A DNA stretch of 64,000 nucleotides from Woeseiaceae bacterium (GTDB taxonomy: Bacteria; Pseudomonadota; Gammaproteobacteria; Steroidobacterales; Woeseiaceae). A program made the position numbers and the translations under genes. The number at the start of each line of letters is the position of its first letter. Positions within the stretch are counted from its first letter, which is position 1. Positions 1,068-30,700 of this stretch are shown here, piece by piece. A model generated the notes under the pieces. That model had not been told where the DNA came from. It saw only the letters and a list, made by a program, of their open reading frames with translations, and searched no databases. The DNA lies in assembly GCA_965224725.1 (NCBI GenBank), contig CBDCZZ010000001.1, positions 37,613 through 101,612 of the forward strand. The letters run 5' to 3'.

Positions 1068-1805
1068 TCAGAGTACGAACGGGATGAGCCACCAGGTTCT
1101 CTTCTTATACGCAGCCCACTCCGGGTAGCGCGACATGCTGGCTTCTTTCATGAGCATATTAACCGTAAACAGCCCGATCCAGACCCACGCGAGCACCACG
1201 ACCGGGATCCAGTGCCAGACCATCATCGCGAAACTGCCATAAATCATGATCTCGCCGAGATAATTCGGGTGCCGGATGTAGCGGTGCATGCCGTCGGTGA
1301 TCAGGCCGCGCTTCTCACGCAGCGTGAAATATTTTTGCGCGTCGGCCGCGATCATGATGACCGAGCCGACCAGGCACAGCGTGATGCAGATGCCGAACCA
1401 CGCGGCATCCGGTAACGGATAGTTTGGTTCCGAGGTTCCGGAGATCAGCAGCCAGCCGAACACCCAGTACCAGCCCAGCACGGCAAGAAACGCGTTAATG
1501 CCGCTTGCGATCGTGATGCGTGGCTGGAAGTTCTGGTCCGGAAAGGCCACGTCCTTGATGATCCAGACAATCCCGTAGCCGCCGTGCATGGCCGCGTAGA
1601 CCCACGCCGCCATCGACCAGTTGTCGTAGCAGTACATGAGCAGCAGCAGGAAGAAGAAGGTGCCTGCTTTCTGGAAGTTGATGACCCAGGAGAATTTCCA
1701 AGGGCGCGGGCCACCGAGGAAATTGCCAACGAAGTAGTTCGTCGTGCGGCGCATGAACTGTGCCCATGCGGGTGCTTCGTAAGCTGTGCTGGTGGCGTTA
1801 TCCAT
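1068..1805 (-). CDS. Polytopic membrane protein, DUF1295 / isoprenylcysteine carboxyl methyltransferase-like family
   Basis: 245-aa ORF with several hydrophobic helices. The C-terminal motif RYIRHPNYLGEIMIYG is typical of the ICMT/DUF1295/steroid-reductase-like superfamily. Confidence 0.75.
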   Translation of the reverse strand: MDNATSTAYEAPAWAQFMRRTTNYFVGNFLGGPRPWKFSWVINFQKAGTFFFLLLLMYCYDNWSMAAWVYAAMHGGYGIVWIIKDVAFPDQNFQPRITIASGINAFLAVLGWYWVFGWLLISGTSEPNYPLPDAAWFGICITLCLVGSVIMIAADAQKYFTLREKRGLITDGMHRYIRHPNYLGEIMIYGSFAMMVWHWIPVVVLAWVWIGLFTVNMLMKEASMSRYPEWAAYKKRTWWLIPFVL

Positions 1806-1853
1806 AGTCCCCTAGTGTAATCTATTCGGCATCAGAATCAGGGGGTTGTACGG

Positions 1854-2987
1854 ATGCTCGGTCTGGCACTTTCCGGCGGCGGATTTCGCGCGACGTTGTT
1901 TCATCTCGGCTCGTTGCTGCGTATCAACGAGGCGGGGCTGCTTGGCAAGCTCGATGAAATCACCAGCGTGTCGGGCGGGTCGATTATTGCCGGGCATCTT
2001 GGTCTGCGTTGGAGACAGCTGGAGTTCGACGAACACGGCGTCGCAACCAACTTCGACACCGAGGTCACTGTGCCGATTCGGGAGTTTTGCAGTCGCACCA
2101 TCGACGTCGGTGTCATTCTCGGCGGCATCATGAATCCAGTACGGCATCCGAGTCACCTGCTCCGAAGTCGTTACCGCAAACATCTCTATGGTGATGGCAC
2201 ACTGCAGGATCTTCCGGCACCCGGCGAAGGTCCTCGCTTCACAATCTATGCAACCAGTCTGCAGACCGGTGCGAGCGTGCGTTTCACCCGAGAGTTTCTC
2301 GGCGAGTATCACCTTGGCCGAATTCCGAACCCGAACATCCTGATCGCCGCTGCTGTCGCTGCCTCGTCGGCATTCCCGCCGCCGCTCTGTCCGCTGAAGC
2401 TGAAGGTTGACCCGGAAAGCTGGATACCCGATGACATTTCCGACCTGCATGGCGATCCGTACCTGATGCGCACCATGTGGCTTGCCGACGGTGGTGTCTA
2501 CGACAATCTCGGGCTCGAACGACTGGTGAGTGTCTGCGACCGCATACTTGTCAGTGATGCCGGCGCGCCGTTCGCGATAAAGAAAAGACTGCGAGCGGTT
2601 CGTTACAGTCAGATCGCTCGTACACGACGCGCAATCAGCATCATGTCCGAGCAGGTGCGTGCCCGTCGCTCACAACGACTTATTCAGCAGTTCGTCGATG
2701 GTGAAAAATCCGGTGCCTACTGGAGCATTGGCACCTGTATCGAAGCGTATCCGTTACTCGAGCAGGGCCTGACCTGTTCGCTGGTCAATGACAGTGACGA
2801 CACTGCAGAGATTGCCGAGATGCGGACACGACTGAACCGCTTCGCCGATGACGAGCAGCGGCGACTGATCAATTGGGGTTACGCGCTGTCCGACGCAGCA
2901 CTGCGCTCCCGTTTCGACATTAGCATTGCCGAGTCGAATGGATTGCCTTATCCGGGGGAGCGCAGCCTGAGCCGCGACTTCAGCTAG
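1854..2987 (+). CDS. Patatin-like phospholipase
   Basis: Oxyanion motif LSGGGFRA, nucleophile elbow VSGGS (GxSxG) and a downstream DGG catalytic Asp motif (LADGGVYDN). Confidence 0.85.
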   Translation: MLGLALSGGGFRATLFHLGSLLRINEAGLLGKLDEITSVSGGSIIAGHLGLRWRQLEFDEHGVATNFDTEVTVPIREFCSRTIDVGVILGGIMNPVRHPSHLLRSRYRKHLYGDGTLQDLPAPGEGPRFTIYATSLQTGASVRFTREFLGEYHLGRIPNPNILIAAAVAASSAFPPPLCPLKLKVDPESWIPDDISDLHGDPYLMRTMWLADGGVYDNLGLERLVSVCDRILVSDAGAPFAIKKRLRAVRYSQIARTRRAISIMSEQVRARRSQRLIQQFVDGEKSGAYWSIGTCIEAYPLLEQGLTCSLVNDSDDTAEIAEMRTRLNRFADDEQRRLINWGYALSDAALRSRFDISIAESNGLPYPGERSLSRDFS

Positions 2988-3286
2988 TCGACGATGATGC
3001 GGCCGGTGCGTGGAGCAGCCGACGGGTCGTTCTGCACCGTGTAGCTGTAGTCGTAGTTGCCGTTAGCACTTCCGTTGACCGTGTACTGCGACGAGTTTCC
3101 GCCGGCTGCGATCTGGACGGGGCTCGTCGGATCGCCGGAAAACGGGCTCTGGCCACCGGTATTGTCCGGCAAGTTGAGCGTGATCGACTTGTTATTCAAC
3201 GTGTTGTGGAACGTGACTTTATCGCTCGTAGCCACGGTTGTGTCGCCTACGTTGGCGTTACCGAGATTGATCGTAACGTCTGCCAT
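2984..3286 (-). CDS. Small beta-rich hypothetical protein (100 aa), third gene of the TIR/SLOG cluster
   Basis: ORF with an AAGGAG Shine-Dalgarno 6 nt upstream, 41 bp downstream of the TIR gene on the same strand. Ser/Thr/Asn/Gly-rich, no signal peptide, ends GRIIVD (cupredoxin-like strand pattern but no Cu ligands). No family recognised. Confidence 0.55.
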   Translation of the reverse strand: MADVTINLGNANVGDTTVATSDKVTFHNTLNNKSITLNLPDNTGGQSPFSGDPTSPVQIAAGGNSSQYTVNGSANGNYDYSYTVQNDPSAAPRTGRIIVD

Positions 3287-3327
3287 CTTGTTCTCCTTAT
3301 TGGGACGTACAGACCAATTGTAGCAAG

Positions 3328-5037
3328 TCAGGGGGATATAGCCATGCGCGGATCTTCAAGCAGCTCGGCAAGTTCGGCGTTGCGTGCAAGCTGCTGCCGG
3401 GTGAAGCCCGCGTTTAATGCTCGCAGCGCGAGCTCGACGGCCTTGTCTCTGTCGCCGATGACCTCCCAGGTTTCTGCACCGGCGGCAAGTATTTCGCCGG
3501 AGTCCGACGCAAGCGCGAGCGCGGTATCCAGGCGCTGCGATGCCAGTTCGGTTTGCCCCGTCTTCGCGTAGTACAGACCGAGGTCGCTGAATATCCAAGG
3601 GTCGCGAGGATTCTGTTCGCGTGCCGCTTCGGCAATCTCGATCGCACGACCGTATGCCTCGTTGCTTGCTTCCGATTCCGGGTCAGTCAGGCGTAACACC
3701 CAGGCGAGGTTGCCCCAGGCGAGCCAGTCGCTGTCGTCAATGGCGAGTGCTTCACGAAATGCGGCTTCAGCATCGTCATAACGCTCGCCGCGCGAATACG
3801 CCGTGCCGAGATTCGACCAGGCCATGTAGGTCGGCTCAATTTCGAGTGCACGTTGATACATCGCGATCGACTCGGGTATCTGGTTTAACTCGGTAAGCAC
3901 CGATCCCAGGTTGACCAGTGTCGGGTAATGATCCGGTGCGAGTCGCAGCGCCGCCTGCCAAAGCTGTGCTGCTTCGCGGAGCCGGCTCTGGTTGTAAAGG
4001 AAGTTGGCATACGAACTCGCCACCCCGATATGCTCCGGATCGAGCGCGACGGCCTTTTTGTAGTAGGTCTCTGCTTCTTCCGGTCTACCGCGCCTGGTAA
4101 GCATGTTGGCCATTGTCTGGTTCGCCACGGCGTCGTTGGCGTCAATCTGCAGCGCACGCTCTACGGCTGCGAACGCGAGATCGTTGTTGCCAAGCCGTGC
4201 ATGCACCGATGCGAGCGCGACATGAACCGGGGCGAGGCTATCGTCGAGCCTTGCGGCTTCTTCGGCATACGTTTTTGCCTCGTTCAGCAGTTGCTCATCG
4301 CCGGTCAGTGCGTACTGGACTCGCAAGCTGTCGGCGAGCCGCGCGTACGCAAGCGCAAACTCACGATCTGCTTCGGCTGCGCTGCGGAACAGCTCGATTG
4401 ATTGCTCAAGATTGTCGCCCTTGTCCCAGCGTTCGAAAAGATCGAGTCCCTCGAGGTAATAATCGAATGCACTCGGTTCGCCACTGACTTCAGTCGACGT
4501 CGGGCCGCTTTGCGACCACATCCAGGCTATTCCGGCAACGACCAGTAAACCGACTGCAGTCATCATGCTGGCCGATCTCTTGCGGTTGCGCCGCGAAAAG
4601 CCTGCCATCGCCGAGCGGCCTCGCAGCGCGTCGATGAGTCGCTCCGAATATCGAGCATCCGACTGCCTGAAGATCGCCTGCACCCGATTCAGCGCAAGCT
4701 CGAGTTCTCCGGGCATTTTCGCGTCTTCGAGATACACGGGGACGATGTCAATATCGTGATCCAGGGCAAATCCGACTTCACGAACACAATGTGCTGATTC
4801 GAGCGATGCATTGGATACGAAGAACAGGAGTTTTGATGCGCCCTTGATTGCATCCGCAATTTCGCCGCGCCAGGACTTGCCGGCGCCGATGCCTTCGTCG
4901 TACCAGAGATTCAGATCTGCCGCGTGGAGCGCAGCCATGTCTTCGTAGACAGTTGGCGCATCCCTGTGCGCATAGCAAACGAAGACGTACGAGTCGTCAC
5001 CCGTGTAGGCCGGAAACGGTTTTTCCAGTTCACTCAT
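3328..5037 (-). CDS. TIR domain - single TM - TPR repeat protein
   Basis: N-terminal TIR_2-type pattern: FVCYAHRD..LWYDEGIGAGKSWRGEI..LLFFVSNASLESAHCVREVGFA, with the conserved Glu. One hydrophobic helix (MMTAVGLLVVAGIAWMW), then about 380 aa of TPR-like repeats. The start overlaps the stop of the upstream gene (ATGA). Confidence 0.85.
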   Translation of the reverse strand: MSELEKPFPAYTGDDSYVFVCYAHRDAPTVYEDMAALHAADLNLWYDEGIGAGKSWRGEIADAIKGASKLLFFVSNASLESAHCVREVGFALDHDIDIVPVYLEDAKMPGELELALNRVQAIFRQSDARYSERLIDALRGRSAMAGFSRRNRKRSASMMTAVGLLVVAGIAWMWSQSGPTSTEVSGEPSAFDYYLEGLDLFERWDKGDNLEQSIELFRSAAEADREFALAYARLADSLRVQYALTGDEQLLNEAKTYAEEAARLDDSLAPVHVALASVHARLGNNDLAFAAVERALQIDANDAVANQTMANMLTRRGRPEEAETYYKKAVALDPEHIGVASSYANFLYNQSRLREAAQLWQAALRLAPDHYPTLVNLGSVLTELNQIPESIAMYQRALEIEPTYMAWSNLGTAYSRGERYDDAEAAFREALAIDDSDWLAWGNLAWVLRLTDPESEASNEAYGRAIEIAEAAREQNPRDPWIFSDLGLYYAKTGQTELASQRLDTALALASDSGEILAAGAETWEVIGDRDKAVELALRALNAGFTRQQLARNAELAELLEDPRMAISP

Positions 5038-6782
5038 CCGCTGCCCATGCGCCAGATTTCAGTCTGATCAAGCGATCGCTCACGATGCATCATAATCCAC
5101 TGCGCGTGCTCGTCCAGCGCCGACCGCCCAAGCACCGTCAGTATCTGGCGTCGTTGCTTGTCGGTCCTGGCAGCGTCAAGTCGTTTGCGCGCGTTAGCAA
5201 AGATACGCAGCATGAATTCGTACTGCTTGATCAGCTCGCTTTCGGCTATTGCGTGTGCGTAACCGTGCCTGACAGCGAACAGCAGCAGTGTCAGGCCCAT
5301 CAGGGCGAGCATTGGTGGCAGCCATTCGGACGGCAGGCGCGAGCCGCCGACCAAAAGAACGATTACAGTAGCCGCGCTCGCAAACAGGCTTACCCGCCCC
5401 AGCGTCTCGGTAATGCGCTGGCGACGTGTGCGTTCACGTACCTTCTGCGCGTAATAACCGAGCTGTCCCGAGTGCGCGGAACCGACCCACTCATTAATAG
5501 AGACCTGAAGTCCGGCAGGGTCTTCCTGCGGCATCGCGTCAGTCACTGTCCCCGAGACGCGCATCGTGTTACGGATCCAGCCGACCTCGGGGTCCTGCAA
5601 TTGCAGGAAGTTGTCGTGCGAGAAGTTCTCGAGATCGTCGGGCGAGACCCCCGCGAGCGCCCAGTAGAACTGCACACGCAGGCCTTCGGCGAGCGTGCGG
5701 TAATCAAGATACTTGCGAAACCAGCCACGTCGAACCGCAAGATTCTGCAGCACCGCGGCGGCAGCAAAACACGCAAGGAACAGGTACAGCAGCGGTTGCT
5801 CGGTGGACAGGTCTGAGTAAAGAATAAAGAGTGCGCCCATGACGAACGCGAACGTATGTGTCGTCCGTAATGTTCGCAGGCTTTTCTTCTGGTAGTGAAT
5901 CGCGAGAAAGTCGGCGCAGCGAAACGAGGCGTCGATGTGTGCGAGACCGTTGATGGCTGTCGGTTCGACGGCTTCGGTTACCAGCGACGGTGACGCATTC
6001 CCGATGTCTTCCCGGAAGCGCTGCGAATCATGACTGAACTCGTTGGCGCGCTTTAATACCTGGTGATGCGAGTCAGGCAGGTCCCTGGTTCGAGGTTGGT
6101 CAGCATCCTTGGTAAACCAGCACCACTCGAGTGGCTCCAGCCCGGCAAGCGGCGCGCCATCTTCGCGGTCGCGCGAGCATACGATGTGGCAGACCAGGTC
6201 GCTTTCGTCGTCGATCAGCATCTGCTGGCTGACGCCCGACTTCCCGGCGTACCCCGGCATGATGTCGTCGTGGTGAAAGTTGACGACCTGGCTGGTGCCG
6301 CCAAGATGGTCCGACTCCTTGCCGTCCCATACCGCGAGCAGCACGTGGCAGTGCGAGGCGAGAAAGATGCCGAGGTGTGCGTAATGCTGCTCCACCGGGG
6401 CGTCATCCGGGAGACCTGAAAGGACGATCACCTCGCTGGCGGCGGAGTACAGTCTGTCGAACCGGTCTGTCGCTTCCTGGTTTTCAAATTCGCCGAGATA
6501 CTCGCTGATCGGCAATGGCAGCGGAACGATCAGCGGCAACTGCATCTCGAGCGCAACTTCGGCGACGAGCTGGTCGGCGCCCTCGGCGAGCGGCGACATG
6601 ACGGTCAGTTCAAGCGCCGGGTAGGCGGTCCGCAGAAACTCGAGTCTCTCGCGCACCAGGTCGCGTATTCCATCGATCTCTGACGCAAGCAGATCGCGAT
6701 GACCTGTCACCGCAACGACAAGTGGTTGTCGGTGCGGTGCAGCATCGTTGCTGTCGACGGACTGGTCTTCGCTCTGGCTCAA
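5034..6782 (-). CDS. SLOG-like Rossmannoid domain fused to two tandem 2-TM SLATT/DUF4231-like modules
   Basis: N-terminal pattern VAVTGHRDL / SPLAEGADQLVAEVAL / LIVPLP / LLAVWDGK..GGTSQVV resembles the YpsA/LOG/DprA (SLOG) superfamily. There are then two units of [..YQKK.. TM TM ..RKYLDYRTLAEGLRVQFYW] and [..YYAQKVRER.. TM TM ..ESELIKQYEFMLRIF]. TTG start assumed. The CDS itself is solid; the domain calls are by eye. Confidence 0.7.
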   Translation of the reverse strand: MSQSEDQSVDSNDAAPHRQPLVVAVTGHRDLLASEIDGIRDLVRERLEFLRTAYPALELTVMSPLAEGADQLVAEVALEMQLPLIVPLPLPISEYLGEFENQEATDRFDRLYSAASEVIVLSGLPDDAPVEQHYAHLGIFLASHCHVLLAVWDGKESDHLGGTSQVVNFHHDDIMPGYAGKSGVSQQMLIDDESDLVCHIVCSRDREDGAPLAGLEPLEWCWFTKDADQPRTRDLPDSHHQVLKRANEFSHDSQRFREDIGNASPSLVTEAVEPTAINGLAHIDASFRCADFLAIHYQKKSLRTLRTTHTFAFVMGALFILYSDLSTEQPLLYLFLACFAAAAVLQNLAVRRGWFRKYLDYRTLAEGLRVQFYWALAGVSPDDLENFSHDNFLQLQDPEVGWIRNTMRVSGTVTDAMPQEDPAGLQVSINEWVGSAHSGQLGYYAQKVRERTRRQRITETLGRVSLFASAATVIVLLVGGSRLPSEWLPPMLALMGLTLLLFAVRHGYAHAIAESELIKQYEFMLRIFANARKRLDAARTDKQRRQILTVLGRSALDEHAQWIMMHRERSLDQTEIWRMGSG

Positions 6783-6823
6783 CGCACATTCTTCTTCTGT
6801 GAGCGTGTTGAGCTAGGGTATTC

Positions 6824-7732
6824 CTAAACATCGACGGAATCCAACAGCGGCCGGATGCGGAAAGACCCTCTTCCAAGTACGAACGCGTTTCCTGCGAGAA
6901 CCAGTGCAAAGCCAATGAGCGTGGTGGCGTCCAGCTCGAGTCCCTCGAATGTCGCCGAAAGTGCAATAGCAACGACCGGGAACATGACCATGGCATAACC
7001 GGCTTTGTGGGCACCGATTCGGCCCAGCAGGGTGAGGTATGCACCGAACGCAACAATGGAGCCGAAGATCGACAGGTAAAACAGCGACGTTACGTATCCA
7101 GTGCTCCAGTCGAACGTAAACGCCTGGCCACTCGCAAGCGCGTATCCGCCGGTCAGCAGGGCGCCGTAAAACATTCCCCAGGCATTCGATTGCAGGACCG
7201 GTAAGCCTTCCTTCTGCGCGGACTGCGAAACCATGTTGCCGAATGAAGCACACAGCGCTCCCAGGACGGCGAGCGAAGAACCGAGAAAGGTTGCATCGTT
7301 GAACGTAAAGTCACCGATCTGCGGCGCGAACAGCACTGCGATGCCGGCGATACCTGCGATGGCACCGACAAGTACGCGTGGGCTGATGCTAGTGCCAAAT
7401 AGTACGCGTGCCAGAATGATGTTCATCCACAGCATCGTCGAGAACGCAATGGCACTGAGCGCGGACACGATATAGATCTGCGCTTTGTAGGTCAGTATGT
7501 AGTTGATGCCGAACAGCAGTGCACCGAGAAGCACGAAGTAGACATGCTGGCGGAGTCCAAATCGGAGCGGCATGCGCCTGAGCGCACACCAGGCAAACAG
7601 CACAGCCGCCGCGATCACATAGCGATAAACAACTGAGACCTCGGGTGCGACGACACCGAGCTGAAACTCGATCGCAAACCACGTCGAGCCCCAGATCAGC
7701 ACCGTCAGTGAGTACAGGGACAGATTGTTCAT
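6824..7732 (-). CDS. DMT (EamA-type) family transporter
   Basis: 302 aa with about 10 TM helices. It has the typical EamA duplication pattern (WGSTWFAI..., FGSIVAFGAYLTLL). Confidence 0.9.
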   Translation of the reverse strand: MNNLSLYSLTVLIWGSTWFAIEFQLGVVAPEVSVVYRYVIAAAVLFAWCALRRMPLRFGLRQHVYFVLLGALLFGINYILTYKAQIYIVSALSAIAFSTMLWMNIILARVLFGTSISPRVLVGAIAGIAGIAVLFAPQIGDFTFNDATFLGSSLAVLGALCASFGNMVSQSAQKEGLPVLQSNAWGMFYGALLTGGYALASGQAFTFDWSTGYVTSLFYLSIFGSIVAFGAYLTLLGRIGAHKAGYAMVMFPVVAIALSATFEGLELDATTLIGFALVLAGNAFVLGRGSFRIRPLLDSVDV

Positions 7733-7890
7733 TTGCAGTACGTCCGGCAGTCGAGCTCGTCCACGGTGTTTTCGAGAATGCGGCGACTCAGGTTGCGGTA
7801 CTTCCGCACACGTGTGGTCGGTGTGAACAGCAGCCCCGCAAGCACACGCCAGCGCGATTCGTGCTGTGGCAAACGGGTTGTGGTGTGCAT
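7729..7890 (-). CDS. Small hypothetical protein (53 aa) translationally coupled to the DMT transporter
   Basis: Own translation: MHTTTRLPQHESRWRVLAGLLFTPTTRVRKYRNLSRRILENTVDELDCRTYCK. AAGGAG SD 6 nt upstream. Its TGA overlaps the ATG of the DMT gene (ATGA). It falls below the length cut-off of the ORF track. Confidence 0.4.
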   Translation of the reverse strand: MHTTTRLPQHESRWRVLAGLLFTPTTRVRKYRNLSRRILENTVDELDCRTYCK

Positions 7891-7983
7891 CGTCATCTCC
7901 TTGCTGGTTTGAGCGTGGAGTTGACTCTACGCAAAATCTGCTGATATAACAGATACACTTTTTGACAAATAAGACCTGTACAG

Positions 7984-9453
7984 ATGTCGAATGTCGATAA
8001 ATCCTGCGATACCTTTCTGTATCGTCAGGTGATTGATTTAATTAGAGAAAACATTGATTCCGGCACACTTCGTCCGGGCGATCGGCTGCCTTCGTTACGC
8101 AAGATGAGCCAGACCGCGGGTGTCAGTATCCCGACAGTTCGGCAGGCTTACGTAGAGCTCGAAAGCCAGAGACGGGTCGAGGCCAGGCCGAAATCCGGCT
8201 ACTACGTGCGGCATCGCCGGGCCCACGACATCGTGTTGCCAGGGCGCACCACGACCGGCACGCCGGGTGAGCTCGAAGTGCGGCCGCTGATGGAGCGTGT
8301 CTACGATGGCATCAACCGTCCGGAGCTCGTGCCACTCGGCATCGCGAACCCGACGATGGCCAAACCGGCGGCGAAAACGCTGCACCGCACGATGAAGCGC
8401 GTAATGGCGCGCGCTGAAGAACGCAGCCTGGGTTACGCAGTCACGACCGGCGAGCCGACACTGCGACGCCAGATTGCCTATCACTACCTGGATACGCTCG
8501 GCGTAAAAGTTCAGCCGGACGAAATCTGCATCACCAACGGTGGTCAGGAAGCGTTACTGCTGGCGCTGCGGGCAGTCGCCAAACCGGGCGATGTTATTGC
8601 AGTCGAAACGCCGACCTACCATGGCATGCTTGAGTTGATTGACTCACTCGGGATGCTCGCGATCGAAGTCGAGACGTGCCCGGAGGAGGGTGTAGTTGTA
8701 CGCGACCTCGAACGCATCATTGCGGAGCATCCGGTTAAGGCCTGCATATTCTCGACGACACTCAATAATCCTCTTGGCGTCACGATGCCACTACGGGATC
8801 GTCGTCGGCTTGCCGCGCTGCTCGAAGAGCATGACATTGCGCTGGTCGAGGACGACGTCTACGGAGATCTCCGTTTCGACGGCGAGCGGCCGATGCCCGT
8901 CGCATTCCTGAACGACAATATTCGTGTTCTTACTTGTGGGTCATTCTCGAAGACTGCTGCTCCCGGTTACCGCATAGGGTGGATCTATACACGCGACCAT
9001 ATCGACGACGTTCGTCATCTGAAGCGTTCATTCTCATGTGCGTCCGGTTTGTTGCCGCAGCTTACGCTGGCCGAATTCATGGCCTCGGGTGATTACGCTC
9101 GCCACCTCACCGCACTTCGCAGCGTGCTGCAGTACAACGCGGAACGTATGGCTGCTGTCATCGAGGAAGCGTTCCCGGCAGACACGCGCACATCACGTCC
9201 GGTCGGCGGTTCGGTCATGTGGCTCGAGCTGTCCAAAGACGTGAATTCGGAACAGCTGATGGATGAAGCAATTGAAGCCGGCATCAGCATTGCACCCGGA
9301 GATATCTTCTCTCCGTGCGGTTGCTACACAAATTTTATCCGACTGAGTTTCGGGCACCCATGGTGCGAAGAAACCGAAGAGGCGATTCGGTGGCTCGGGC
9401 AGCGCGTTGGCGGTAACCAATCGTCGTCCAATCCTGCTATCGTGACGCACTGA
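7984..9453 (+). CDS. MocR/PdxR-type regulator (GntR HTH fused to a fold-type I aminotransferase-like domain)
   Basis: N-terminal GntR wHTH (LYRQVIDLIRENIDSGTLRPGDRLPSLRKMSQTAGVSIPTVRQAY) plus a long aminotransferase class I/II-like domain (SFSKT lysine motif). Divergent from the DMT gene. Confidence 0.9.
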   Translation: MSNVDKSCDTFLYRQVIDLIRENIDSGTLRPGDRLPSLRKMSQTAGVSIPTVRQAYVELESQRRVEARPKSGYYVRHRRAHDIVLPGRTTTGTPGELEVRPLMERVYDGINRPELVPLGIANPTMAKPAAKTLHRTMKRVMARAEERSLGYAVTTGEPTLRRQIAYHYLDTLGVKVQPDEICITNGGQEALLLALRAVAKPGDVIAVETPTYHGMLELIDSLGMLAIEVETCPEEGVVVRDLERIIAEHPVKACIFSTTLNNPLGVTMPLRDRRRLAALLEEHDIALVEDDVYGDLRFDGERPMPVAFLNDNIRVLTCGSFSKTAAPGYRIGWIYTRDHIDDVRHLKRSFSCASGLLPQLTLAEFMASGDYARHLTALRSVLQYNAERMAAVIEEAFPADTRTSRPVGGSVMWLELSKDVNSEQLMDEAIEAGISIAPGDIFSPCGCYTNFIRLSFGHPWCEETEEAIRWLGQRVGGNQSSSNPAIVTH

Positions 9454-29316: not shown

Positions 29317-30090
29317 ATGTATACGGATATCCAGTTGCGCGAGATCTTTCACTTCTGCTTCCTGAACAGGTTGCTGAAGACGACTGATATTGAGCTATTC
29401 GTACTCAAGGGTGGCGTCAACCTTCGCTTCTTCTTCCAGAGCCCGCGTTACTCCGAGGACATGGATCTCGATGTTCTTGGCGGCAGTGTCGCAACGCTCA
29501 AAAAGAACGGCTACAAAATACTCAACGACGCGTCCTTCCAGCGCAGCCTCAAGGTCTTCGATATCGACTCGGTCGAAATCAACGATCCACACAAGGCCAA
29601 ACACACCAAAACGACACAGCGCTTTCGCTGTTCCCTGGTCCGTTCGTCCGGGCAGCAATTGCCAACCAAGGTCGAATTCTCACGTCGTGCCGACGAGGTT
29701 CGAGAGCTGACGATTACCGAGCAAGTAGACCCCGGTATCGCGCTCCCTTATCGAAAGCTGGCGTACCCTTGCCGGCATTACAACGGAACCGCGGCCGTTG
29801 CTCAGAAGATTGAGGCGCTGGCCGGCCGCAGCGTGGCGCAGGCGCGCGACGTATTTGATTTGGGCATTCTGCAGGCGGGTGGCCACCTCGCGTCGGCTGC
29901 AGATCAGGACAACTTCCAGGATCTGCCCTTTGCCGCCGCAATCGATGCTCTACTGTCCCTGCACTGGGAAGATTATGAAGGCCAGGTGCTCGAATATCTC
30001 GCGCCAGAGATCCTTGGAGAATTCGGGAGTCGGGACGCTTGGGTAAATCTGCAGAACGAGATCTACGAAGTACTGCTGGCTCATGCTTGA
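29317..30090 (+). CDS. Nucleotidyltransferase AbiEii/AbiGii-family toxin (DUF1814)
   Basis: FVLKGGVNLRFFFQSPRYSEDMDLDV matches the LKGGTAL..SPRFSEDLDF signature of the family. Confidence 0.85.
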   Translation: MYTDIQLREIFHFCFLNRLLKTTDIELFVLKGGVNLRFFFQSPRYSEDMDLDVLGGSVATLKKNGYKILNDASFQRSLKVFDIDSVEINDPHKAKHTKTTQRFRCSLVRSSGQQLPTKVEFSRRADEVRELTITEQVDPGIALPYRKLAYPCRHYNGTAAVAQKIEALAGRSVAQARDVFDLGILQAGGHLASAADQDNFQDLPFAAAIDALLSLHWEDYEGQVLEYLAPEILGEFGSRDAWVNLQNEIYEVLLAHA

Positions 30091-30700
30091 TTTGCTGCAG
30101 AAACCGGACTTTGTCGTATTCACGACTCGCGATGCCGCTGTTGCCGACGGCGTATCAGTTTCAGCTGCATCGAGAAGACTGACGCGAATTGCCGAAGGTG
30201 GGGCGATCAAACGAGTTACCAAGGGCGTTTGGGCAAATACACAGCACCCACACTTTCATCCCCTGTCCTGCGTACCATACTTGCTGGGGAAAGAGCAGGG
30301 ATACGTATCATTCCTCTCTGCATTGCACCTGCATGCAGCGTTGTCGCAGATTCCTGCCGTTATGATGGTCGCCACAACTGGTCATGGCCGAAAGCTCGAT
30401 TCTCCAGTTGGCAGGTTTGAGTTTTTCCGGGTCAAGCCGGAACTTATGCGTGATGGCGTTGCGTGGTCAGATACCCGGCAGCCATACCTGATGGCGACTC
30501 CGGAAAAAGCCTTGTTGGACGTCTTGTACCTTTCGACAAGAAAAAAGCGTCGCTTCTCTCGATTACCGGAGCTCATCTTGAGCGATAGCGGATTTCGGGT
30601 AACGGAGTTCAGGCGCCTGCTTAAGTCCTTGCCATACTCCAAGCGGGTACGTTCAGCGATCAATTCCAGGTGGGAAGGCCTGGCGCCGCAGATTAGCTGA
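30083..30700 (+). CDS. AbiEi-like antitoxin / wHTH regulator
   Basis: N-terminal wHTH pattern FTTRDAAVADGVSVSAASRRLTRIAEGGAIKRVTKGVWAN. Overlaps the upstream toxin gene by 8 nt. Confidence 0.7.
   Translation: MLDLLQKPDFVVFTTRDAAVADGVSVSAASRRLTRIAEGGAIKRVTKGVWANTQHPHFHPLSCVPYLLGKEQGYVSFLSALHLHAALSQIPAVMMVATTGHGRKLDSPVGRFEFFRVKPELMRDGVAWSDTRQPYLMATPEKALLDVLYLSTRKKRRFSRLPELILSDSGFRVTEFRRLLKSLPYSKRVRSAINSRWEGLAPQIS

Follow-up and report, generated by a model that had tools for sequence, protein, structure and literature searches.

We analysed a 64,000-nucleotide stretch of DNA from a Woeseiaceae bacterium (the window), in which three co-directional open reading frames, here called A, B and C, had been predicted to form a signalling module. 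All three were present with the lengths given in the original prediction, and lie on the minus strand, which had not been stated there (Table 1). The stop codon of A and the start codon of B share an ATGA (context cggATGAgtg), and the stop codon of B is followed by a 41-nt spacer and then by C, with AAGGAG seven nucleotides upstream of its ATG. The motifs cited in the original prediction (VAVTGHRDL, SPLAEGADQLVAEVAL, LIVPLP, LLAVWDGK..GGT, YQKK, YLDYRTLAEGLRVQFYW and CVREVGFA) were all found in the translations. Gene A begins with TTG. In the database, A (P0001, 558 aa) begins at a GTG located 24 codons further in; this start was disfavoured, as it would remove the conserved first beta-strand, and the TTG start was therefore preferred.

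Table 1. Features of the A-B-C locus, with positions in the window.
Feature	Position	Strand	Basis
Gene A, SLOG + 4-TM (two SLATT-type modules) membrane protein	5034..6782	-	582 aa; ORF, AlphaFold model
SLOG-superfamily Rossmannoid domain of A, residues 20-223, predicted cytoplasmic nucleotide-signal sensor	6114..6725	-	Foldseek, Pfam, invariant residues
First SLATT-type 2-TM module of A, residues 280-377 (TM1 311-325, TM2 331-350)	5652..5945	-	Pfam SLATT_3 and DUF4231, model
Second SLATT-type 2-TM module of A, residues 439-570 (TM3 464-480, TM4 491-504)	5073..5468	-	Pfam SLATT_1
Gene B, TIR-TM-TPR single-pass membrane protein	3328..5037	-	569 aa; ORF, Pfam
TIR domain of B, residues 18-124, predicted cytoplasmic	4666..4986	-	Pfam TIR_2, 2.1e-17
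Glu87 of B, catalytic position	codon 4777-4779	-	invariance, PDB profile alignment
Single TM helix of B, residues 158-174	4516..4566	-	Kyte-Doolittle scan, sequence
TPR array of B, residues about 200-535, predicted periplasmic	3433..4440	-	Pfam, NCBIfam
Gene C, beta-rich protein without signal peptide	2984..3286	-	100 aa; ORF, RBS

Protein A belongs to a large family (2970 word-indexed matches; 1935 clusters at 50% identity, E<=1e-30) and is kept at 50-73% identity across many species of Woeseiaceae, Steroidobacteraceae and Rhodanobacteraceae. The AlphaFold model of A (pLDDT 88.4, pTM 0.89, with pLDDT >90 over residues 20-170) showed a Rossmannoid three-layer arrangement, with conserved Gly-rich or polar loops following strand 1 and a further, GGxGT-like loop, as is characteristic of the SLOG fold. 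A Foldseek search of this domain against the PDB returned YpsA first (2nx2; E = 1.4e-4, TMt 0.67), followed by ShosA, DprA, the LOG-like protein TM1055 and the Moco carrier protein, and TRPM4 and TRPM2 were also among the fold matches. ThsA-SLOG (7uxs) appeared at rank 36 of the PDB search, with an E-value of 0.24. Among viral structures, the top matches were DprA-like and YspA/cpYpsA SLOG proteins, with E-values down to 3.8e-6. The Pfam model YAcAr matched 18 of 77 members of the A family at E<=0.01 (best 3e-6), and its cut-off of 28.2 bits was reached neither by the window protein (12.9 bits, E = 0.099) nor by the best family member (27.4 bits). Residues H28, R29, G68, A69, D70, W152, D153, G154, G161 and G162 are invariant in the family, and the motifs GHRD, EGAD and GGT vary little or not at all. 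As modelled, the N-terminus of A is a SLOG fold of the YpsA/DprA/YspA type rather than of the ThsA-SLOG type. The SLOG assignment made earlier is thereby borne out at the level of the fold, in the model and in the family scans, with YpsA, DprA and YspA nearer to it than ThsA-SLOG. Since its resemblance to YpsA and DprA is stronger than that to the SLOG domain of ThsA, which binds cADPR, the fold does not fix ligand specificity.

C-terminal to the SLOG domain are four TM helices, arranged as two hairpins (residues 311-350 and 464-504). The AlphaFold model, taken together with the TM positions, indicated short outer loops and long flanking helices, and an amphipathic helix, YLDYRTLAEGLRVQFYW, comes after TM2 in the first module. 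Pfam searches of the A family at E<=0.01 detected SLATT_3 in 57 of 77 members (best 2.9e-6), DUF4231 in 39/77 and SLATT_1 in 25/77 (best 9.4e-6), with the SLATT_1 matches falling on the second module (for example, residues 694-817 of 836 in P0065). Precomputed matches to PF18184 or PF18181 were present in a few relatives of A. The window protein itself scored below the curated Pfam cut-offs for SLATT_3 (E = 9e-3; 16.7 bits, cut-off 26.3) and DUF4231 (1.5e-3; 19.4 bits, cut-off 24.7), and below the cut-off of NCBIfam for SLATT_1 (2.4e-5; 24.3 bits, cut-off 41) and SLATT_3 (1.3e-4). No internal repeat was found in A using hhalign. The two tandem SLATT-type modules proposed originally are thus upheld by the family-level scans and the structure model, though they are sub-threshold for the window protein, and the architecture is that expected of SLATT proteins, with 2-TM hairpins and flanking helices fused to a SLOG domain and adjoining a TIR gene. 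Judged by profile matches to their sequences, the two modules are different subtypes.

The description of B as a TIR_2-type protein (Pfam E = 2.1e-17) with a glutamate at the catalytic position, one TM helix and TPRs was confirmed. E87 is invariant across three TIR subfamilies, and in a PDB profile search it aligned with the catalytic Glu of AbTir (..NYELD) and TcpB and with the Glu of 7uxr, with E-values of 1e-13 to 1e-10. When the TIR domain of B was compared with five reference TIRs (10.64898/2025.12.03.692087), the nearest was a Streptomyces TIR paired with a '4TM SLOG' effector; the ThsB models of PADLOC matched B weakly (0.01), and no ThsA model matched A. Among the Pfam matches to the C-terminal region were TPR_2 (1e-28) and TPR_12 (4.6e-28); TPR-S, at 1.7e-5, fell below threshold, and the NCBIfam model TPR_END_plus passed its cut-off. 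The TM helix is preceded on its N-terminal side by RRNRKR and followed by an acidic stretch, and positive charges are seen at the cytoplasmic ends of every TM helix in both A and B. Hydropathy and the positive-inside rule predict a topology in which the TIR domain of B is inside and about 340-380 aa of TPRs are in the periplasm. The B family has at least 547 metagenomic relatives.

C had been described as a protein of no recognisable family. We found that it belongs to an unnamed family whose members come after B-type genes at 36 of some 42 loci. A structure model of C reached a pLDDT of 85.7 in only one of five runs, and its top Foldseek match was amicyanin (TM about 0.6, E = 5e-4). The C-terminal Cys-His-Met ligand loop of the copper cupredoxins is absent from C, and a copper cupredoxin was therefore rejected; the modelled fold is possibly a cupredoxin-like sandwich without copper ligands. 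C probably modulates B.

Linkage of these genes was examined across related loci. The count was restricted to 54 A-family loci flanked on either side by 3.5 kb or more; in 33 of them a TIR ORF was present within 3.5 kb of A, mostly adjacent and on the same strand. Nearly all the A-linked TIR genes that were checked encode TIR-TM-TPR proteins, as does a divergent gene beside a distant relative of A (L169), and four further loci carry in place of the TIR gene a DUF4062-nSTAND1-TM-TPR (STAND NTPase) gene. By sequence, the TIR partners fall into three or more subfamilies, yet the TIR/NTPase-TM-TPR layout does not change. The membrane anchor of the TIR protein, singled out originally as the unusual feature of the locus, recurred in almost every TIR-TPR partner of the A family, as one TM helix after the TIR domain; a membrane-tethered TIR is the rule among these partners and not peculiar to the window locus. 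Two or three TIR-TPR genes accompany a single A at several loci (L057, L071, L075 and L078), which we liken to Thoeris loci with several thsB genes. Partner proteins with signal peptides occur at other loci, and roughly a third of the A genes stand as orphans among housekeeping genes.

The view from B was different. The A-B-C order is repeated in the closest relative (L083), and B, C and A are also found together in L089 and L121, but of the about 40 full-length B loci on which neighbour counts for the B family were based, only 3 have A close by; as a rule no A is present within 5-6 kb. No A was present within 6 kb of B-C in four long contigs examined, and an S8 subtilisin-like peptidase adjoins B-C at 7 loci, more often than A does. 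The constant partner of B is C, not A. The pairing of TIR with SLOG-SLATT proteins put forward in the original prediction is supported from the side of A (33/54 loci, and the trio in L083) and much less from that of B, whose steady neighbour is C. Recurrent gene proximity suggests a functional link between TIR proteins and SLOG-SLATT proteins.

The wider setting was that of housekeeping genes, with transporters, peptidases, GroEL, RNase E, OsmC and TonB flanking the locus in the window and in related contigs. The PADLOC matches among 46 window genes were limited to an AbiE-like pair, 22 kb distant, and a PLD-like gene matching DrmC models, and none was reported near the A-B-C locus. Placement in a defence island, named as a check in the original prediction, was not observed in the window or in related long contigs (5 to 7, a small sample and not a statistical survey). 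In 2.9 million viral contigs, members of the A and B families are almost entirely lacking.

We propose that the locus is a membrane-embedded, Thoeris-like NAD-signalling module with B as receptor, C as its partner and A as SLOG-SLATT effector, a reading to which we would give an even chance. B would be a single-pass receptor with a cytoplasmic TIR domain and periplasm-facing TPRs, C a small cytoplasmic beta-sandwich accompanying B-type receptors, and A an effector with a cytoplasmic, nucleotide-sensing SLOG domain and SLATT hairpins that form or gate a pore. An envelope or periplasmic cue would alter the association of the TPR ectodomains, and the cytoplasmic TIR domains would be gathered and become active. 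The active TIRs may then convert NAD+ to an ADP-ribose-derived messenger that binds the SLOG domain of A, upon which the SLATT helices could open or oligomerise, depolarising the membrane and halting growth. The putative role would be anti-phage or another envelope-stress response.

Counted for this module were the domain identities, the invariant Glu87, the charges around the TM helices, the ATGA overlap of A and B, the recurrence of the trio, the linkage of A to TIR genes, the swapping of partners with a constant layout, the loci with several TIR sensors, the likeness of the TIR of B to the '4TM SLOG' reference TIR and the Thoeris precedents; counted against it were the usual absence of A near B, the orphan A genes, the sub-threshold SLATT scores, the greater likeness of the SLOG domain to YpsA and DprA than to ThsA-SLOG, a topology drawn from hydropathy and charge, the missing defence island, the near-absence from viral contigs and two 'SLOG and 4TM' systems that gave no defence in E. 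coli. The lack of A near most B genes may indicate that B and C are self-contained, with an NADase output of their own (NAD+ depletion) or partners other than A, and that A just happens to adjoin them in this lineage and answers to another input. C trails B in 36 loci, compared with only 3 of about 40 that have A close to B, the four long B-C contigs lack A within 6 kb, the S8 peptidase (7 loci) is a commoner neighbour than A, and many bacterial TIR proteins are NADase effectors, not signal generators (10.64898/2025.12.03.692087). However, the A family is strongly and independently tied to TIR-TM-TPR genes of other subfamilies, 3/40 loci is far more than chance would place a gene with one or two copies so close by, the ATGA overlap joins A and B in an order kept in L083, and orphan A and orphan B-C genes could cooperate in trans. 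We consider a self-contained B-C pair unlikely.

The TIR messenger may also gate the SLOG-SLATT channel for physiological envelope or periplasmic signalling and not for anti-phage abortive infection; examples would be membrane permeability controlled in response to stress, nutrients or competitors. The housekeeping flanks, the lack of PADLOC matches near the locus among the 46 window genes, and the conservation of A in many species of the three families (50-73% identity) are in keeping with such a role, as are a predicted sensor facing the periplasm, where phage proteins are scarce, the signal peptides of partner proteins at other loci, and the physiological function of the eukaryotic TRPM channels, which have a SLOG-like N-domain and of which TRPM4 and TRPM2 were among the fold matches. 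Nevertheless, a patchy and variable gene order, swaps of TIR subfamily, middle genes that vary, TIR sensors in duplicate and paralogous copies within one genome are traits of conflict systems, and all TIR+SLOG or TIR+SLATT operons studied experimentally to date serve in phage defence. We consider a physiological role unlikely. Finally, the SLOG domain of A could itself be an enzyme (a LOG/YpsA-type N-glycosidase or nucleotide processor) that makes or destroys a nucleotide at the membrane, and the TIR protein would then act downstream of it or in parallel. Its nearest folds include LOG-like TM1055, the Moco carrier protein and YpsA, polar, His and Cys residues are invariant across its family (H28, R29, D70, H144, C145, H146, H170, H171, H199 and C202), and some SLOG clades are catalytic (PMC9503650). 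We regard this as very improbable, given that the SLOG-SLATT 2-TM fusion is the architecture for which sensor-to-pore logic was proposed, that SLATT effectors in CBASS and in type VII Thoeris lend support to such a logic, and that ThsA-SLOG is an established sensor.

At the domain level, the elements of a Thoeris-type module were found, namely a TIR with a catalytic-position Glu and, by architecture only, a SLOG sensor with a 4-TM output. The original prediction knew of no characterised system of like composition. This has been overtaken, since type VII Thoeris, in which the TIR protein ThsB acts with the SLATT protein ThsH through a canonical cADPR signal, has been validated as anti-phage, and a 'SLOG and 4TM' or '4TM SLOG' effector type has been predicted (Tables S1 and S2) and trialled in E. 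coli, where two such systems, from Streptomyces and Nitrospira, gave no defence (Yirmiya et al. 2025, bioRxiv 10.64898/2025.12.03.692087). In type VII Thoeris, as at our locus, a TIR gene adjoins a SLATT-type 2-TM protein predicted to breach the membrane on a TIR-made nucleotide. ThsH, however, is annotated as SLATT alone, whereas A adds an N-terminal SLOG domain and two SLATT subtypes; the window TIR has a predicted membrane anchor, predicted periplasmic TPRs and an obligate small partner, C, and the locus is without defence-island context. The 'SLOG and 4TM' configuration shares with the window locus an effector described as SLOG with 4 TM next to a TIR, a likeness at the level of the domain description, but its listed TIR domains are not described as TM-TPR proteins.

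Thoeris types I, III and IX use TIR with SLOG effectors (10.64898/2025.12.03.692087). Type I (ThsB TIR with ThsA SIR2-SLOG; 3'cADPR) resembles the proposed module in its TIR generator, in the SLOG sensor within the effector and in the several TIRs per effector of some loci; unlike type I, the window locus has a predicted membrane pore as output in place of a SIR2 NADase, and a SLOG domain of YpsA/DprA/YspA type. Its domain vocabulary and logic, in which a signal derived from ADPR controls a 2-TM SLATT pore, are those of the SLOG-SLATT fusions and TIR-SLOG-SLATT networks predicted by Burroughs, Aravind and co-workers (summarised in PMC9503650 and PMC7159879). Two further systems are eukaryotic analogues and not relatives. 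Toll-like receptors likewise join an ectodomain rich in repeats to a cytoplasmic TIR through one TM helix, but B has the opposite orientation (its TIR is N-terminal and inside, its TPRs C-terminal and outside), carries TPR and not LRR repeats, and keeps the enzymatic Glu, whereas the TIR domains of Toll-like receptors act as adaptors. TRPM2 is gated by ADP-ribose, and TRPM2-type channels similarly join a SLOG-like cytoplasmic domain to a channel, although their channel domains have 6 TM helices in contrast to the 2-TM SLATT hairpins of A. Overall, the locus looks like a putative envelope-sensing cousin of Thoeris anti-phage signalling.

The genes for protein A (a SLOG domain followed by four transmembrane, TM, helices), protein B (TIR-TM-TPR) and the small beta-rich protein C are arranged head to tail on the minus strand. 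The stop codon of A overlaps the start codon of B (ATGA), and 41 nt separate the stop of B from the start of C, which is preceded by AAGGAG. The three ORFs, their junctions and every motif quoted in the original prediction were present in the window sequence. In the public record of A (P0001, 558 aa), translation begins at a GTG 24 codons into the ORF (window 6711-6782, minus strand), and the conserved first beta-strand, PLVVAVTGHRD, is lost. Of the possible starts, only the TTG at 6782 retains this strand; no clear Shine-Dalgarno sequence was found ahead of it. G+C content was uniform over the region, and a promoter and terminator scan of 1700-8100 gave counts no higher than those in shuffled sequence. 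The patatin-like phospholipase gene that converges on C was considered as a component of the system; it was absent from 164 related loci save for one distant match, and since it is not conserved beside A or B, it probably does not belong to the system.

Positions of genes in the window and in related loci (L numbers) and related A-family proteins (P numbers)
Feature	Position	Strand	Remarks
Gene A	5034-6782	minus	ORF, 582 aa, TTG start
Gene B	3328-5037	minus	ORF, 569 aa
Gene C	2984-3286	minus	ORF, 100 aa
EamA transporter gene	upstream of A	minus	same strand as A
Patatin-like phospholipase gene	1854-2987	plus	converges on C; 4-nt overlap of both stop codons
AbiEii-like gene	29317-30090	plus	
AbiEi-like gene	30083-30700	plus	
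nSTAND1 NTPase-TM-TPR genes	L031:1782-5552, L004:2744-6328, L039:2523-6161, L044:2524-6195		
490-980-aa protein genes	L012:5319-7796, L010:5411-7951, L004:6452-7912, L006:6263-7855, L031:5666-7876		
Small beta-rich middle genes	L056:6795-7184, L057:7608-7979, L062:7106-7507, L066:7518-7895, L067:3094-3612, L081:6606-6998		
S8 peptidase genes near B-C	L089:3118-4344, L121:2031-3281, L084:4606-5862	minus	
Further S8 peptidase genes near B-C	L125, L134, L109, L124		
Double-SLOG A relatives (~840 aa)	L006:7950-10460, L009:7890-10466		P0017, P0019, P0022, P0058, P0065 and others

Pfam placed a TIR_2 domain at residues 18-124 of B (2.1e-17) and a long run of TPR families at residues ~200-535, and the NCBIfam TPR end-of-group model exceeded its cut-off. 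The single hydrophobic helix (residues 158-174) is preceded by RRNRKR and followed by an acidic stretch; the positive-inside rule predicts a cytoplasmic TIR domain and periplasmic TPRs. When B-type TIR domains were aligned with those of two other TIR subfamilies adjoining A homologs, six positions, S81 and E87 among them, were invariant. A profile of this alignment matched enzymatic bacterial TIRs in the PDB (1e-13 to 1e-9), the matches being 7uxr, AbTir, TcpB/BtpA, Cat1 and SARM1. E87 aligned with the catalytic Glu of these proteins, bearing out the conserved glutamate proposed for B, and the TIR domain looks catalytically competent from its sequence.

Assignment of A relied on its family, which is large and well conserved. 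Matches to the window protein alone were all sub-threshold, both in Pfam (DUF4231, 1.5e-3; SLATT_3, 9e-3; YAcAr, 0.099) and in NCBIfam (SLATT_1, 2.4e-5), and none of the PADLOC models matched A. Across its 77 relatives, Pfam detected SLATT_3 in 57, DUF4231 in 39, SLATT_1 in 25 and YAcAr in 18; the SLATT_3 and DUF4231 matches fell on the first 2-TM hairpin and those to SLATT_1 on the second. No internal duplication was found by hhalign between the two 2-TM modules, at low alignment diversity, and the call of two SLATT modules is therefore based on their matching different SLATT families. The tandem SLATT modules originally proposed for A are thus upheld at the level of the family, but not as an internal repeat or in the window protein by itself. 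Both hairpins (residues 311-350 and 464-504) carry basic residues on their cytoplasmic sides, and their outer loops are short, so the entire soluble mass of A is predicted to be cytoplasmic.

An AlphaFold2 model of A built from the 77 relatives was confident (pLDDT 88.4, pTM 0.89), with an alpha/beta domain at residues 20-223 and long helices after it. Foldseek searches of the PDB ranked YpsA first (E 1.4e-4, TM 0.67 on the target), followed by ShosA, several DprA structures, LOG-like TM1055 and Moco carrier protein, and DprA-like and YspA/cpYpsA SLOG proteins came top among viral models. On the basis of this model, we assign the N-terminal domain to the SLOG superfamily, of YpsA/DprA/YspA type. 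The predicted SLOG fold is thereby retained, although ThsA-SLOG, along with TRPM4 and TRPM2, ranked much lower in the PDB list. A set of His and Cys residues in the SLOG core and just beyond it (H144, C145, H146, H170, H171, H199 and C202) is invariant or nearly so in the family, and could form a metal or catalytic site. Of the 1,935 clusters (50% identity) that the family profile matched at E<=1e-30 among 1.84 billion representatives, the best 150 were mainly full length. A size class of ~840 aa carries the SLOG-like domain in tandem duplicate before the four TM helices.

Many relatives of B were found (570-575 aa, 51-66% identity), and the closest (66%), in locus L083, lies in the same A-B-C order as in the window. 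In four long contigs carrying B relatives, no A was present within 6 kb. Each of the four has a 92-101-aa gene beside B, downstream in three, and this gene encodes a C homolog in the three contigs with retrievable DNA. Among 80 metagenomic B loci, jackhmmer searches from C detected a C-family gene directly downstream of B in 36, which is nearly every full-length B locus having downstream sequence, and A was nearby in only three (L083, L089 and L121). B-C is therefore the tight unit, to which A is added in a minority of cases. Conservation of the trio, which the original prediction put forward as a check, holds for the recurrence of the order in L083, but most B loci have C without A, and C, described as belonging to no recognisable family, is the regular companion of B. 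A subtilisin-like S8 peptidase, perhaps an effector in place of A or besides it, adjoins B-C in seven loci. Its gene lies just downstream of A in the same orientation in L089 and L121, forming with A an operon that converges on B-C.

Members of the C family are 76-132 aa long, lack a signal peptide and share a conserved terminal ..R(S/T)G.I.. motif. Cysteines at positions 8 and 48 are found in ten or eleven of 11 relatives (alignment A4); the window protein has lost both, with Leu and Pro at these positions. One of five AlphaFold models of C was confident (pLDDT 85.7; the others, 34-42) and resembled cupredoxins such as amicyanin (TM ~0.6). The copper-ligand loop of cupredoxins is absent from C, and we propose a cupredoxin-like fold tentatively, from this model.

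We also analysed 80 A loci, one per species, mostly from Woeseiaceae, Steroidobacteraceae, Rhodanobacteraceae and Lysobacterales. Dyella halodurans DHOG02 and Rhodanobacter glycinis (L066 and L069) are among the carriers of the system. A phmmer search with the TIR domain of B detected only five TIR neighbours, and a first reading that A is unlinked to TIR was dropped when clustering and Pfam identified another TIR-TM-TPR subfamily adjoining A. In 37 loci, clustering showed a same-strand neighbour of ~730 aa with TIR_2/ThsB_TIR and TPR_10/TPR_12 matches; its gene either precedes A by 0.4-2.5 kb or follows it after 4-31 nt. With a TIR profile, a TIR ORF was found within 3.5 kb of A in 33 of the 54 loci having at least 3.5 kb on both sides. 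Four further loci encode a 1,200-aa nSTAND1 NTPase-TM-TPR protein instead, with a weak N-terminal DUF4062 match. A divergent TIR-TM-TPR gene again accompanies a distant A relative (L169), and the 68% relatives of A (L081 and L082) have the other TIR-TM-TPR subfamily, then a 130-aa protein, then A. In nearly all A partners, a single TM helix links the enzymatic domain to the TPRs, and a membrane-anchored sensor with outward-facing TPRs is therefore the norm of the family rather than the unusual feature it had been taken for. Roughly a third of the A genes are orphans amid housekeeping genes, some genomes have two A loci, and one A is found with two or three TIR-TPR genes in L057, L071, L075 and L078.

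Between the sensor gene and A there is usually a third gene, encoding either a beta-rich protein of 120-190 aa or a protein of 490-980 aa. The larger protein, whose N-terminus resembles a signal peptide, could be a partner of the TPR ectodomain in the periplasm. Its gene immediately precedes A and, in several loci, separates A from the TIR/STAND-TM-TPR gene. Sequence searches of Pfam, NCBIfam and the PDB returned nothing for these secreted middle proteins (clusters c6, c10, c152 and c243). The small beta-rich proteins of Rhodanobacteraceae and Woeseiaceae have a common C-terminal DPxI(K/R/H)N motif, and only that of L067 has a signal peptide. Homology of C to this set was considered but is not supported, as neither hhalign nor an iterated C profile showed significant similarity.

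We infer that the locus encodes a membrane-embedded Thoeris-like module, the likeliest of the readings considered, which we regard as evenly balanced between right and wrong. A periplasmic cue would act on the TPRs of B and activate its cytoplasmic TIR domain, an NAD-derived product of which would be sensed by the SLOG domain of A; the SLATT helices of A would then permeabilise the membrane, and C would modulate B. The analysis establishes the domains, the predicted topology, the conserved catalytic residue and the gene linkage, whereas the biochemical steps and the biological role are proposals. The rarity of A beside B-C leaves room for the view that B-C acts alone and that A is a neighbour answering another input, but the minority of loci in which A accompanies B is far above chance for a gene at one or two copies per genome, and we consider this view unlikely. 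Catalysis by the SLOG domain of A appears highly improbable; comparative-genomic reviews describe the YpsA-like SLOG clade as a sensor of cADPR variants, and SLATT as a predicted pore under the control of ADPR derivatives (PMC9503650; PMC7159879).

The same mechanism could instead serve envelope physiology and not phage defence, which seems improbable to us. The surroundings bear on this point. The original prediction suggested checking for a defence island, and none was seen: PADLOC detected an AbiEii/AbiEi-like pair (29317-30700) and generic PLD matches, and nothing else, among the 46 window genes, and in the related contigs the neighbouring genes are housekeeping ones. The other window genes encode peptidases, aminotransferases, RtcB and similar proteins (Pfam). 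In the AbiE-like pair, the only clear defence-type pair in the window, the toxin-like gene comes first and shares 8 nt with its partner. Relatives of A and B hardly occur in 2.9 million viral contigs, where each family had one marginal match.

Returning to the Thoeris-like module, its interest lies in a receptor layout that spans the membrane and in how large the uncharacterised families are: the SLOG + 4 TM effector family, very large and uncharacterised, has a membrane-tethered TIR with predicted periplasmic TPRs as its standard partner. To our knowledge, characterised bacterial TIR signalling systems all sense infection within the cytoplasm. If the proposed pathway is true, a nucleotide second messenger would pass a cue from outside the cytoplasm on to a membrane pore, adding envelope surveillance to the reach of Thoeris-type logic and providing a prokaryotic counterpart of Toll-like receptor (TLR) architecture and ADPR-gated SLOG channels. 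More broadly, and with considerable doubt, there may be a large class of bacterial transmembrane TIR receptors of TLR-like layout that detect periplasmic or envelope events and signal through an NAD-derived messenger to a SLOG-gated SLATT pore. Candidate cues would be damage to the cell wall, toxins released by competitors, or the machinery by which phages adsorb or eject, and the receptor would be tuned by small cytoplasmic partners such as C, or by secreted partners elsewhere; this would be a Thoeris-type pathway with its trigger outside the cytoplasm. Concrete parts for its study are E87, the SLOG pocket residues H28, R29, D70 and G161-T163, and the B-C pair with its obligate partners.

Among published systems, the locus is a variation on a known theme of TIR to SLOG/SLATT signalling. 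Thoeris types I-XI have been described by Yirmiya et al. (bioRxiv 10.64898/2025.12.03.692087), with SLOG-containing effectors in types I, III and IX and, in type VII, a TIR protein with a SLATT effector and the canonical cADPR signal. The same study predicted a "SLOG and 4TM" effector in Streptomyces and Nitrospira, which did not protect E. coli (Table S2), and lists more "4TM SLOG" cases in Table S1; "4TM SLOG" effectors have the IMG identifiers 2862473379 and 2691454910. On the pathway proposed here, a missing trigger or partner may account for the failure in E. coli. Among five reference TIR domains, a tiny database that allows a relative comparison only, the TIR domain of B was nearest to that of the Streptomyces "4TM SLOG" system. 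The pipeline of Yirmiya et al. demanded enrichment near defence genes (10.64898/2025.12.03.692087), whereas the window locus lacks such enrichment. In the literature outside Burroughs et al. (2015), we came across no account of a TIR-TM-TPR receptor accompanied by a C-type protein. A survey of TIR systems in E. coli noted that some TLR features, such as TM and repeat domains, are seemingly missing from bacterial TIR systems (PMC11350192). In their predicted layout, B-type proteins resemble Toll-like receptors, with repeats outside the membrane joined through a single TM helix to a TIR domain in the cytoplasm.
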